A stretch of 64,000 bases of DNA from Patescibacteria group bacterium (GTDB taxonomy: Bacteria > Patescibacteriota > Patescibacteriia > Patescibacteriales > UBA12075), in the NCBI GenBank assembly GCA_018897195.1, contig JAHILH010000001.1, forward strand, positions 284,565 to 348,564, in the 5' to 3' direction. The notes under the pieces were generated by a model, which ran no database searches, had not been told where the DNA came from, and saw nothing but the letters and a program-made list of their open reading frames with translations. The position numbers and the translations under genes were made by a program. Numbering within the stretch: the stretch's first letter is position 1; each line of letters starts with the position of its first letter. Below are positions 24,270 through 29,535 of the stretch, piece by piece.

Positions 24270-24302
24270 AAAAAACCCGACTCAGAAATGAGTCGGGTTT
24301 TA
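24270..24302. terminator. Bidirectional terminator between convergent genes
   Basis: AAAAAACCCGACTC-AGAAAT-GAGTCGGGTTTTA. Confidence 0.75.
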
Positions 24303-24817: not shown

Positions 24818-25954
24818 TTACTTCTTAATCGCCTTCGCAATGGCCGTAACCGCCTTTTTGTCTGTAACTTTAGGTAAAATATTGTCAGATGTGGGTTTTT
24901 TAACCGTATACGCCAAGGCAATGGCCGCAGATATTTTCATGGCCAAAGTTACCTTTTTCACGCCAGAATCCAACAATCCCCTAAATATACCCGGAAAAAC
25001 CAAGGCATTATTGATCTGGTTGGCGAAATCTGAGCGTCCTGTACCAATAATAGCCGCACCAGCTTTTTTGGCAATATCCGGCATAACTTCCGGAACAGGA
25101 TTAGCCATGGCAAAAATAATTGGATCGGGATTCATAGATCTAATCATTTCCGCAGAAACCAAATTCCCCTTGGACACACCAATGAAGACATCAGCATTTT
25201 TCATGGCAACATCAAGACCACCTTTCAATTTTTTCTTGTTAGTTTTTTTCGCCATATTTACTTTGTGTATATTCATCCCTTCACGTCCGCTATAAATAAT
25301 CCCCTTGCTATCCAAGATAATCATATTCTTAACATCTTGTGCTAATAGCAATCGCGCAATCGCAAATCCAGCCGCACCGCCACCATTGATAACCACTTGC
25401 AAATCCTTCATTACTTTACCAGTCACCCGGCAAGCATTTATCAAAGCTGCCAAAACTACAATTGCCGTGCCGTCTTGGTCATCATGAAAAACAGGAATTG
25501 ATAATTCATTTTCCAGTCTTTCTAAAATATCAAAACAACGCGGTGCGGAAATATCTTCCAAATTAATCCCGCCAAAACTCGGTTCGATTAATTTACAGAA
25601 ACGAATAATTTCTTCTGTGTCCGTGGTATTAATACAAAGCGGCATCGCATCGACACCAGCAAACTCTTTAAAAATAATCGACTTCCCTTCCATTACAGGC
25701 ATTCCCGCTTCCGGACCGATGTCTCCAAGACCCAACACGGCTGTCCCATCACAAACAATCGCAATCTGATTTTTGCGATTAGTCAATTCCCAGCTTTTTT
25801 TCTTATCCTTGGCAATCTCCATGCACACCGCCGCCACGCCAGGCGTATATGCCGTTGACAGATCCTCAATCGTCTCTAATCTGACCTTAGATTTAATCTC
25901 AATTTTCCCACGATTCTTTTTGTGCAAAGCAATCGCTTTTTTGTTATAGTCCAT
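24818..25954 (-). CDS. NAD(P)-dependent malic enzyme (short form)
   Basis: LSTAYTPGVAAVC, VCDGTAVLGLGDIGPEAGMPVMEGK, GGINLEDISAPRCF, GGGAAG. Confidence 0.85.
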   Translation of the reverse strand: MDYNKKAIALHKKNRGKIEIKSKVRLETIEDLSTAYTPGVAAVCMEIAKDKKKSWELTNRKNQIAIVCDGTAVLGLGDIGPEAGMPVMEGKSIIFKEFAGVDAMPLCINTTDTEEIIRFCKLIEPSFGGINLEDISAPRCFDILERLENELSIPVFHDDQDGTAIVVLAALINACRVTGKVMKDLQVVINGGGAAGFAIARLLLAQDVKNMIILDSKGIIYSGREGMNIHKVNMAKKTNKKKLKGGLDVAMKNADVFIGVSKGNLVSAEMIRSMNPDPIIFAMANPVPEVMPDIAKKAGAAIIGTGRSDFANQINNALVFPGIFRGLLDSGVKKVTLAMKISAAIALAYTVKKPTSDNILPKVTDKKAVTAIAKAIKK

Positions 25955-27187: not shown

Positions 27188-27880
27188 TTATATTTTTTTA
27201 TTTATTTTATTATATTTATTTAAAATCAGATCAACGTCAGTCTTCTCAAAATCAGGCCAATACTTGTTCATAGAAATAAATTCACTATCCGCCGATTGCC
27301 ACAATAAAAATCCCGATACCGTCTGCAAACCAGCCATGCTCACAATTAAGTCCGGATAGGCAATCTCGTTTTGGTAAAGATATTTTCTTATCAAGGATTC
27401 ACTAACCTGTTCTGTCTCAAATTTTTTATCAATTATTTTCTTAACCGCTTCAACAATTTCATTACGTCCATCATAATTAAAACAAAAATTCATTGTGCCT
27501 TTGGAGTTATCCTTGGTAGCACTAACAGCCTCCTTAAAAACATCTGCCAAATCACCAGGCAAGTCATTTGTTTCACCACTCAATAATATCTTATAACCAC
27601 TCTGATCAAACTCAGGCAAATTTTCCTTAAGAAAATTCTTTGTCACCTTCATCAAATAAGCCAAATCGTTTTCACTCTTTTTGTAATTATTCGTGAGATA
27701 AAGCGAAAAGGAAATTTCTTTAACACCTTTTTCAAAAAACCATCCAGGCACATTCTTTAATAGTTCATAACATTTTATCGAACCATTTTCAACAGCCAGA
27801 TTTCGTTCCTTGGCCCACTCATCATTGCCACCGAGCATAATAGCGATATGGCGGGGAATTTTATTTTTATTTTCTGTCAT
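27188..27880 (-). CDS. cis-prenyltransferase (UppS) homolog with substituted catalytic positions
   Basis: Collinear with E. coli UppS as I remember it. RHIAIMLGGNDEWAKE replaces RHVAIIMDGNGRWAKK, LYLTNNYKKS replaces AFSSENWNRP, and DLIVSMAGLQTVSGFLLWQ replaces DLVIRTGGEHRISNFLLWQ. Confidence 0.65.
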   Translation of the reverse strand: MTENKNKIPRHIAIMLGGNDEWAKERNLAVENGSIKCYELLKNVPGWFFEKGVKEISFSLYLTNNYKKSENDLAYLMKVTKNFLKENLPEFDQSGYKILLSGETNDLPGDLADVFKEAVSATKDNSKGTMNFCFNYDGRNEIVEAVKKIIDKKFETEQVSESLIRKYLYQNEIAYPDLIVSMAGLQTVSGFLLWQSADSEFISMNKYWPDFEKTDVDLILNKYNKINKKI

Positions 27881-28153
27881 TTATTTTACTATTTTTATTA
27901 ATTTAATCTTATCACCAGCTCCACTAATAATCTTCACGCCATCTTTACCAACCCCAAATTCCTTGGCGAGAAATTTCACCAACTCAATATTAGCCTTGCC
28001 ACCTTCTGGCGCAGCCGCAATGTCTATTTTTAAAACTTCCTCCTCGCCGTCAAGCATGCTCTTAACCTCCGTCTTGTTCGCCCCTGGTCTAGCTTTTATT
28101 TTTAAATAAACTTCATTGTCGTTATTTAATTTCGCCTGATATTTTTTCAACAT
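27881..28153 (-). CDS. DUF167 (YggU-like) protein
   Basis: Start moved to ATG 28153 (MLKKYQAKL...). VYLKIKARPGANKTEV...APEGGKANIELVKFLAKEF...VKIISGAGDKIKLIKI fits the DUF167 pattern. Overlaps the upstream gene by 32 nt. Confidence 0.7.
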   Translation of the reverse strand: MLKKYQAKLNNDNEVYLKIKARPGANKTEVKSMLDGEEEVLKIDIAAAPEGGKANIELVKFLAKEFGVGKDGVKIISGAGDKIKLIKIVK

Positions 28154-29456
28154 TTTTTCTTTCGCTAAAAACAATAGCATTAGGAATATTGCGTCCCGGG
28201 CCAAGCATTAGTTCGCCGTTATAAAATAAAGCTTCGGAATATCCGCCGTCCATATTCAAGGCATATTCCATACCCAGCTCTTGCATAATATAACCTAAGT
28301 CCGGCACAGTCGCATTGCGTGCCACCACCAAATAAGTCTTATTATCTTTATATCCAATCGCATTACGCAAAAGCTTTCCTGTTCTCTGCTTCGCATCCAA
28401 GCTATAATCAACCAAATAATTCATGTAGTTTTCAATCAAGCGCGGATTATCACCAATCGCAGCTTGCAATTTCACGCCGTACGCTTCTCGAAAAGACTCT
28501 TGCACTGTTTTGCCGCCATTATTTTTATACCAACTTGGCGTCGGAAAATCGCGCCCGTCCTTAAAGTAATAAAATTTATTATTTGCATCCCAGGCCATAA
28601 TCGGACCGGTTGTCCAATACTTCAATTGATGCACATTAACCATTTTATCTAAATTTTTATCATAGACTGGATAAAAATAATAATTCGCGCCATCACAACC
28701 AGAAGAAGAGCAAAAATATGTACCATTCATGGCTGCAAAACCGTCATTCTTAATGACAAAATCCATCAATGTCGCACCTCCGTATTTTCCACTCTTGGCT
28801 TCAGTTGGATATGGCTCAGCTACTGGTGTAACTATTTCCAAATTCGGATTACTCAAATCTATTTCAATCATATCGATTGTATACACTTGATTATTAACGG
28901 TTATTTTTTTATTTTCATATTTACTATAACTATTAATCGACTCACTCAAACCTGGTTTGTGAATCATAGCCAGATCTTTTTGACTAATTCCCAACCCCAA
29001 TTTCCGCATCACCGCAAAAGCATCCGCTGGCCTACCTAAGTAATATTTTTTCAAATCTTTGGGATAAATATACCAAGCCTCACCGTTCTTTTCGACTTGT
29101 AAAATAATCTGACCAGATAATTTTTGCGCCAAAGCTAAGTCACCAGCACTAGTCGAAGCCACCGTGCTCGTGGCAATTGTACTGGTAGACACAGCACTTG
29201 TGTCCGCAATCGGAATTTTTTTAAATTCAGTCTCATTAATACCCAAGCCAAGCGTGCGCATCAAGGCAAAAGCATCATTAGGTCGTCCTAAATAATAGCG
29301 TTTCGCATCTTTCGGATTCACATACCAAGCCTCGCCGTTTTTTTCCACATTTAAAAGAATCATTCCCGACAATCTACCAGCCGCTTCACCCGTTTGCACG
29401 ATTATTGGCGACACCAAAAATATAATTAATAACAGTATTTTGAATAAATTTTTCAT
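28122..29456 (-). CDS. Secreted protein: two N-terminal ~55-aa repeats plus a C-terminal phosphodiester-glycosidase-like (DUF2233/NAGPA) domain
   Basis: Signal peptide MKNLFKILLLIIFLVSPIIVQTGEA. Duplicated module LSG.I.L.VEKNGEAWY..PKD.K.YYLGRP.DAF..MR.LGLGI. The C-terminal family call rests on the tail GYKDNKTYLVVARNATVPDLGYIMQELGMEYALNMDGGYSEALFYNG. Confidence 0.55.
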   Translation of the reverse strand: MKNLFKILLLIIFLVSPIIVQTGEAAGRLSGMILLNVEKNGEAWYVNPKDAKRYYLGRPNDAFALMRTLGLGINETEFKKIPIADTSAVSTSTIATSTVASTSAGDLALAQKLSGQIILQVEKNGEAWYIYPKDLKKYYLGRPADAFAVMRKLGLGISQKDLAMIHKPGLSESINSYSKYENKKITVNNQVYTIDMIEIDLSNPNLEIVTPVAEPYPTEAKSGKYGGATLMDFVIKNDGFAAMNGTYFCSSSGCDGANYYFYPVYDKNLDKMVNVHQLKYWTTGPIMAWDANNKFYYFKDGRDFPTPSWYKNNGGKTVQESFREAYGVKLQAAIGDNPRLIENYMNYLVDYSLDAKQRTGKLLRNAIGYKDNKTYLVVARNATVPDLGYIMQELGMEYALNMDGGYSEALFYNGELMLGPGRNIPNAIVFSERKNVEKISGEIK

Positions 29457-29502: not shown

Positions 29503-29535
29503 AAAAAAAACAGTCCATTTCTGGACTGTTTTTAA
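29503..29535 (-). terminator. Intrinsic terminator after the cyclophilin gene
   Basis: AAAAAAAACAGTCCA-TTTC-TGGACTGTTTTT. Confidence 0.7.

Follow-up and report, generated by a model that had tools for sequence, protein, structure and literature searches.

The UppS-like gene in the window (the whole 64,000-nucleotide stretch of DNA analysed here) probably encodes a non-catalytic pseudoenzyme, P0001, that arose in place from the native UPP synthase UppS and is kept for a non-catalytic role, with an acquired pair of prenyltransferase genes elsewhere in the genome supplying synthesis. We infer the loss of catalytic activity from the sequence of P0001, in which the residues that bind Mg and the diphosphate groups in other cis-prenyltransferases (cis-PTs) are replaced.

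The source genome (G000; 1.17 Mb, 6 contigs, 95.6% complete) is that of a groundwater Patescibacteria member, and the sequencing runs found to contain the stretch were groundwater DNA metagenomes, with no RNA run among them. The gene belongs to a compact minus-strand run formed by the NAGPA-domain gene, DUF167, P0001, the 403-aa MFS transporter, malic enzyme and L21 (Table 1). The sequence-only reading had placed P0001 in an operon with the MFS transporter and DUF167, and the gene junctions bear this out, the TAA of DUF167 standing directly before the ATG of P0001 and the MFS gene starting 1 nt past its stop. The true start of the DUF167 gene is likely near 28153-28159 (orthologs are 90-92 aa long). 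The hairpin 5' of the NAGPA-domain gene is likely the 5' limit of the transcription unit, and the hairpin past the L21 gene is likely the 3' limit of the minus-strand run. The NAGPA-domain protein carries two N-terminal copies of a ~70-aa repeat (…GEAWYVNPKD.KRYYLGRP.DAF..M…LGLGI…), which is also present in unrelated neighbouring ORFs of relatives.

Table 1. Coordinates of the genes and hairpins discussed in the text. Positions without a prefix are those of the window.
Feature	Position	Strand	Remark
Degenerate UppS-like gene, P0001	27188..27880	-	ATG start, intact ORF, 230 aa
DUF167 (YggU family) gene	27881..28204	-	stop TAA abuts the UppS-like ATG
MFS transporter gene, 403 aa	25975..27186	-	start 1 nt past the UppS-like stop
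NAGPA-domain (phosphodiester glycosidase) gene	28122..29456	-	heads the conserved NAGPA-DUF167-UppS block
Malic enzyme gene	24818..25954	-	downstream end of the conserved block
Bidirectional terminator-like hairpin	29506..29533	.	5' of the NAGPA gene
Strong terminator-like hairpin	24272..24301	-	past the L21 gene
Second PF01255 gene, P0121, 237 aa	G000:C3:146498-147208		directly after a trans-polyprenyl synthase (PF00348)
Half-size MFS-like gene	L049:4365-4997, L050:4362-4997, L020:789-1433		
Conserved 364-403-aa protein	L079:4724-5827, L080:4862-5968, L051:5852-7063, L082:3763-4857		

P0001 retains the fold of a UPP synthase. It matched Pfam PF01255 over residues 17-229 (E=2e-48, 165 bits), and M. 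luteus UPPS (1f75) was its lead match among solved UPP synthases (E=6e-37). The AlphaFold2 model, for which 53 aligned sequences were used, had a mean pLDDT of 89.7 and a pTM of 0.87, and its best Foldseek matches were catalytic UPPS/DPPS chains at a TM of ~0.9. The top Foldseek match, 9a7x_A, is a chain with the cis-PT fold from an integrative model titled ISPT-SYA (crosslinking MS and deep learning), and by this title the chain is in complex with a second protein.

Residues were mapped by HMMER alignment to 1f75, and E. coli numbering was carried over through an alignment of P0121, the second cis-PT of the genome, with E. coli UPPS. The segments that had been named as kept were present as quoted (NYDGRNEI at 135-142, FLLWQ at 191-195 and WPDF at 208-211). 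The same was true of the three catalytic motifs reported as changed, namely DGNGRW to GGNDEW (residues 17-22), SENWNR to NNYKKS (64-69) and IRTGGEHRIS to VSMAGLQTVS (180-189), and no alternative alignment put Asp or Arg back at the catalytic positions. In human DHDDS, D34 is the Mg ligand, the binding residues for the allylic diphosphate are R37, R38 and R85, and those for the phosphate of IPP are R205, R211 and S213 (PMC7573591). The Mg-coordinating Asp (E. coli D26, DHDDS D34) is Gly17 in P0001 and is Gly in 7/7 members of its clade, compared with Asp in 106/106 canonical homologs. The allylic-diphosphate (S1) residues R30, H43 and R77 (DHDDS R37/R38/R85) are replaced by Glu21, Ser34 and Lys68. 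At the IPP (S2) site, R194 has become Ser181 and R200 has become Thr187, and of this set only S202 (Ser189) is kept. Also lost are S71 (Leu62), E198 (Leu185) and R242 (Lys229), and G244 is absent. [quoted passage not shown] The G244A substitution inactivates E. coli UPPS (10.1101/139675). Further positions are changed (G29 to Asp20, A69 to Leu60, F70 to Tyr61, E73 to Asn64, W75 to Tyr66 and Y211 to Asp198), and N74 (Asn65) and E213 (Glu200) are kept.

Conservation was counted in a 118-sequence alignment that included 106 canonical homologs. Sixty positions were at least 90% conserved among the canonical homologs, and the degenerate clade has kept 33 of them and changed 27. The kept positions make up the fold and dimer regions (NYxGRxE, SxFLxWQ and KYWPDF), and the changed ones include the Mg-binding Asp and all of the diphosphate-binding Arg and His residues. 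Judged on the alignment, the residue losses in P0001 are far beyond chance. The tunnel region is altered as well, with Leu or Phe at the A69 equivalent and Phe at I141 and at the A143 and A92 equivalents; from the E. coli mutagenesis literature we take these positions to line the tunnel. That the bulkier residues of P0001 at these places, Leu60, Phe83, Phe132 and Phe134, would close its tunnel is only a lead.

P0001 stands where its relatives have a canonical enzyme. None of the 40 relatives examined, which come from the same GTDB family and order, has more than one cis-PT homolog. These homologs are 36-50% identical to P0001 and carry the canonical DGNRRW, FSTENWxR, RTSGExRLS and RRFG motifs. 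In 26/29 fetched loci of relatives, the canonical UppS gene directly follows DUF167, and the usual block is NAGPA-DUF167-UppS-RarA-malic enzyme. The shared place beside DUF167 therefore identifies P0001 as the positional ortholog of canonical UppS. RarA/MgsA, which relatives carry between UppS and malic enzyme, is found on another contig in G000 (C3:34399-34839), and the MFS gene holds its former place. Compared with the homodimeric UppS enzymes of E. coli (1jp3), M. luteus (1f75) and B. subtilis (7jli), P0001 has the same fold (Foldseek TM ~0.9) and length, retains regions IV and V (NYxGRxE, SxFLxWQ, YWPDF) and is a direct descendant in the same genomic position as the canonical UppS of relatives. 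It differs from them in lacking all of the residues given above as lost or absent, from Asp26 to Gly244, and in not being the only cis-PT of its genome.

The degenerate form is shared by a clade of at least seven sequences (P0001-P0007). P0002-P0007, which were found by database search, are 66-85% identical to P0001 and have in common GGNxEW, xxAGL and no RxG, and the C-termini of the other members are ragged and end before that of P0001. The gene order NAGPA-DUF167-UppSdeg-MFS was observed in the window and in 3/3 other fetched contigs of the clade (L043, L045 and L047). Trees were quick IQ-TREE and FastTree runs. In the quick ML tree the seven sequences are united with 100% support on a long stem branch (0.83 substitutions per site), and their clade is nested within Falkowbacteria-like canonical UppS, beside partly degenerate forms (DGNEEW, RTSGK, no RxG). 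That the trees place all degenerate forms together may reflect long-branch attraction, since the genomes in question span different GTDB families.

A search of G000 for a second, canonical cis-PT, as the sequence-only reading had proposed, found one, P0121 (Table 1). It has DGNRRW, D26, R30, H43, S71, N74, R77, R194, S202 and a C-terminal RRFGK, with Asp in place of E198 and His in place of R200, and it is 22% identical to P0001. No P0121-type cis-PT was found in the 40 relatives, in each of which both queries matched the same single locus. The PF00348 trans-prenyltransferase (trans-PT) family was detected in 1/25 family genomes, G000 itself. The nearest homologs of P0121 are 58-68% identical to it and many are annotated as Candidatus Moranbacteria; the JGI annotation of its homologs is GGPP-specific tritrans,polycis-UPP synthase. 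A trans-PT gene followed by a cis-PT gene was also seen on two contigs with close homologs, one from an NCBI MAG and one from a sediment metagenome. Both genes of the G000 pair are 67% identical to the pair of one Moranbacteria MAG, in the same order, and in that MAG the P0121 type is the sole cis-PT. The shared order and the matching identity of both genes indicate that the pair was acquired as a unit, and we regard it as a horizontal acquisition of Moranbacteria type. Sequence composition around the cassette on C3 showed no anomaly. Since the type stands alone in the Moranbacteria MAG and P0121 has its own RRFGK, this appears to be a self-sufficient, homomeric cis-PT. It shares superfamily and genome with P0001, from which it differs in its catalytic residues, its RRFGK, its trans-PT partner gene and its being foreign to the family. 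The cassette and a degenerate gene were seen together in G000 only.

Several further observations concern the Moranbacteria-type genes. One homolog, P0124, shares its two source samples with P0007, but its surroundings look Moranbacteria-like. Next after the Moranbacteria-type cis-PT comes a conserved protein of 364-403 aa that has no strong Pfam match (Table 1), and a three-gene cassette of cis-PT, trans-PT and this gene is possible. G000 does not have the 364-403-aa gene and carries a 235-aa ORF on the opposite strand in its place.

Degenerate UppS copies are not confined to this clade. Within the order, altered motifs and no RxG were observed in G015 (EGSDKW, QTAGK), G030 (GGQEEW, LTGGIK), G069 and G070 (SGNKHW and DGSNDW, respectively, with KTSG) and G028 and G312 (RVGGLQHTG). 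The degenerate copy is the sole PF01255 homolog in G015, G030, G069 and G070. Four genomes with a degenerate single copy were tested for PF00348, and none has it. The low-scoring degenerate single copies all follow DUF167, except that of G069 (L072). A profile search with the clade alignment against 1.84 billion cluster representatives ranked P0242-P0246 and P0271 near the top; in these, RxG and the Arg residues are missing, as is the Asp in all but P0245, and the two of them that could be placed in context both follow DUF167. Counted as clusters at 50% identity, these proteins add at least five to six to the degenerate clade of P0001. On these sequences, the apparent catalytic decay of UppS is recurrent in this order, and the sole-copy forms indicate that degenerate copies need no canonical partner in the genome.

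This bears on the suggestion, made in the sequence-only reading, that P0001 resembles the non-catalytic partner subunits of heteromeric cis-PTs. Like NgBR/Nus1/CPTL and archaeal MaUPPS-B (MA4402), P0001 is predicted to be non-catalytic, has degenerate regions I and III and keeps the dimer-forming C-terminal regions (IV and V) (10.1101/139675), and a canonical cis-PT is present in the same genome. It would then activate or regulate this cis-PT as an accessory subunit in a heterodimer. We consider this very unlikely. P0001 lacks the C-terminal RxG, which is the element that NgBR-type subunits contribute (10.1101/139675; PMC7573591), as well as an N-terminal membrane segment and an RxG-less catalytic partner of the hCIT/DHDDS type. 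P0121 has its own RRFGK, is of a type that stands alone in a Moranbacteria MAG, is only 22% identical to P0001 and is of different origin. In addition, four other genomes have no cis-PT homolog apart from a similarly degenerate ortholog, and P0001 arose recently and in situ from a bacterial homomeric UppS, unlike the ancient paralogs of the NgBR group. The partner-subunit comparison is therefore not upheld.

PF01255 was detected in 120/316 genomes of the order, with no match in 196/316, and three families (f10, f12 and f16) are almost without it (1/41, 12/148 and 0/11 genomes). In five of the most complete genomes of those families (95-100% complete, 1-40 contigs), two GT4 (MraY/WecA-type) genes are retained. 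With GT4 genes present and no cis-PT, such bacteria probably acquire their carrier lipid from an outside source. G000 likewise has two GT4 genes, and neither IspH nor a GHMP kinase was found in it, so that no known route to IPP was found in this genome. Among the 24 family relatives, 22 have canonical UppS and none has PF00348. Canonical UppS without a recognisable allylic primer or IPP source points to the scavenging of isoprenoid precursors. Rickettsia parkeri is an isoprenoid-scavenging reduced bacterium that, as here, has a reduced genome and no recognisable IPP pathway and still needs polyprenyl-phosphate carriers (PMC6854040). In contrast to the present case, our searches gave no degenerate UppS for Rickettsia.

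P0001 could serve the adjacent MFS transporter as an accessory in the cytoplasm, for instance by accepting a scavenged lipid or isoprenoid or by passing one on. The MFS gene begins -1 to +7 nt after the UppS-like gene in 4/4 clade genomes examined, the two being neighbours in the degenerate clade only, its orthologs are at other loci in relatives with canonical UppS, and the missing IspH and GHMP kinase of G000 would fit an imported precursor. We nevertheless regard this as highly improbable, because adjacency is the sole link in genomes that are tightly packed, and because the transporter is a generic member of the MFS that occurs in 24/24 family genomes, whatever the state of UppS. Moreover, the partly degenerate relatives (P0042 and P0045) have an unrelated 210-aa half-MFS upstream instead. 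An uncontrolled complex prediction for the 403-aa MFS and P0001 gave an ipSAE of 0.00, which is neutral as to binding. In the partly degenerate clade, and likewise in some relatives with canonical UppS, the half-size MFS-like gene (210-214 aa, ~six helices) separates DUF167 from UppS (Table 1). A relationship between the 403-aa MFS and this 210-aa half-MFS was considered and dropped, the two having no sequence similarity. In nearly all contexts (L004-L032, L043-L050, L064-L071, L086 and L087), DUF167 is the gene immediately upstream of UppS or its degenerate counterpart, even when the other neighbours change. It was rejected as a functional partner, being present in 295/316 genomes, including families without a cis-PT; as DUF167 and cis-PT are not lost together, we leave their adjacency as gene-order conservation.

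The P0001-type gene is under purifying selection. Pairwise comparison of four clade members gave a dN/dS of 0.035-0.11 and a dN of 0.07-0.23 (dS is saturated at >2, which makes omega rough), values similar to those of the NAGPA, DUF167 and MFS genes beside it, and the ORF is intact in 7/7 clade sequences. The dN/dS values argue that P0001 is not a pseudogene. It is quite unlikely, then, that P0001 is a slowly decaying, functionless gene that has gone unrecognised as a pseudogene and is so far unbroken. Such decay would agree with the dispensability of cis-PT genes in the order, with the long stem branch and with the ragged C-termini among clade members, but it is difficult to reconcile with intact ORFs in at least seven sequences diverged to 66% identity, with the low dN/dS at a dS >2 and with a core of 33 positions that is 99% conserved.

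The distribution of this constraint along the protein suggests what is being preserved. Column identity within the clade is 0.99 at the 33 retained canonical positions, 0.83 over all positions and 0.65 at the 27 changed, formerly invariant positions. Close members of the clade differ at positions 20, 34, 181-182 and 187-188 and within 63-69, the Ser34 and Lys68 positions vary, and Glu21 and Asn64 are invariant, as, almost, are the dimer-forming regions IV and V and the core. As the old active-site positions are the least constrained, the site appears to have been abandoned rather than retuned. What selection maintains is therefore the fold with its dimer-forming regions, and not a catalytic pocket fitted to a new use. 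Residual or altered chemistry may nevertheless persist in P0001, given that the Asn74, Ser202 and Glu213 equivalents are kept. It would then still be an enzyme, for example with a substrate that has no diphosphate head group or with residues relocated in the old pocket. Purifying selection on the whole protein, the invariance of Glu21 and Asn64 and the retained Ser202 and Glu213 equivalents are consistent with this, and other cis-PT-fold enzymes, such as MM_0014, reportedly carry out unusual reactions. We think it unlikely, however, as the members of the clade vary most at the old active-site positions and as, to our knowledge, every known cis-PT-fold enzyme retains the Asp and the diphosphate-binding Arg residues.

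Collectively, these results favour a non-catalytic pseudoenzyme descended from the native UppS. The native gene has stayed in its ancestral place after DUF167 and would have lost cis-prenyl chain elongation, the foreign trans-PT and cis-PT pair would supply polyprenyl diphosphate, and P0001 would survive as a pseudoenzyme, probably still a homodimer, with a non-catalytic role. Candidate roles are the binding of a lipid without a diphosphate head group or a scaffold function, and of the descriptions available 'repurposed scaffold', a term already offered in the sequence-only reading, fits its present role best. In a lineage that scavenged its carrier lipid, decay could have preceded a later regain of the cassette; alternatively, the cassette may have been gained first and the native gene released only then. 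We favour decay first, because relatives with a degenerate sole copy exist. More tentatively, and in our judgement rather doubtfully, the order might hold a recurrent family of UppS-derived pseudoenzymes, invariably placed just after DUF167, that has taken on a new, non-catalytic job linked to scavenging. This job might be, for instance, to hold host-derived polyprenyl phosphate or deliver it to MraY/WecA-type enzymes. If true, it would explain why the fold is kept long after catalysis was lost, even after the gain of a foreign synthase pair.

The degenerate copies are easily mistaken for enzymes. P0001 scores above the cut-off of the NCBIfam equivalog TIGR00055 'uppS' (156.8 versus 109.55 bits), and NCBI records list the similarly degenerate P0242 as 'polyprenyl diphosphate synthase'. 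It follows that metabolic reconstructions will wrongly count these genes towards UPP synthesis, and the uppS labelling of degenerate copies is a systematic annotation error.

A literature search found no paper that links a cis-prenyltransferase with Patescibacteria or with a pseudoenzyme. The non-catalytic cis-PT homologs known to us so far are ancient, RxG-keeping partner subunits (NgBR/Nus1, plant CPTL and archaeal MaUPPS-B). The present case is a bacterial homomeric UppS that would have turned into a pseudoenzyme in its original genomic place; P0001 appears to have lost both its catalytic side and its RxG side and is still selected. The order provides a comparative frame for this change, with canonical sister orthologs, partial intermediates, sole-copy degenerates, complete losses and one lineage with a foreign pair. 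It may thus offer a tractable system in which to study other uses of the UPPS fold and how ultra-small symbiotic bacteria obtain the carrier lipid for their cell wall.
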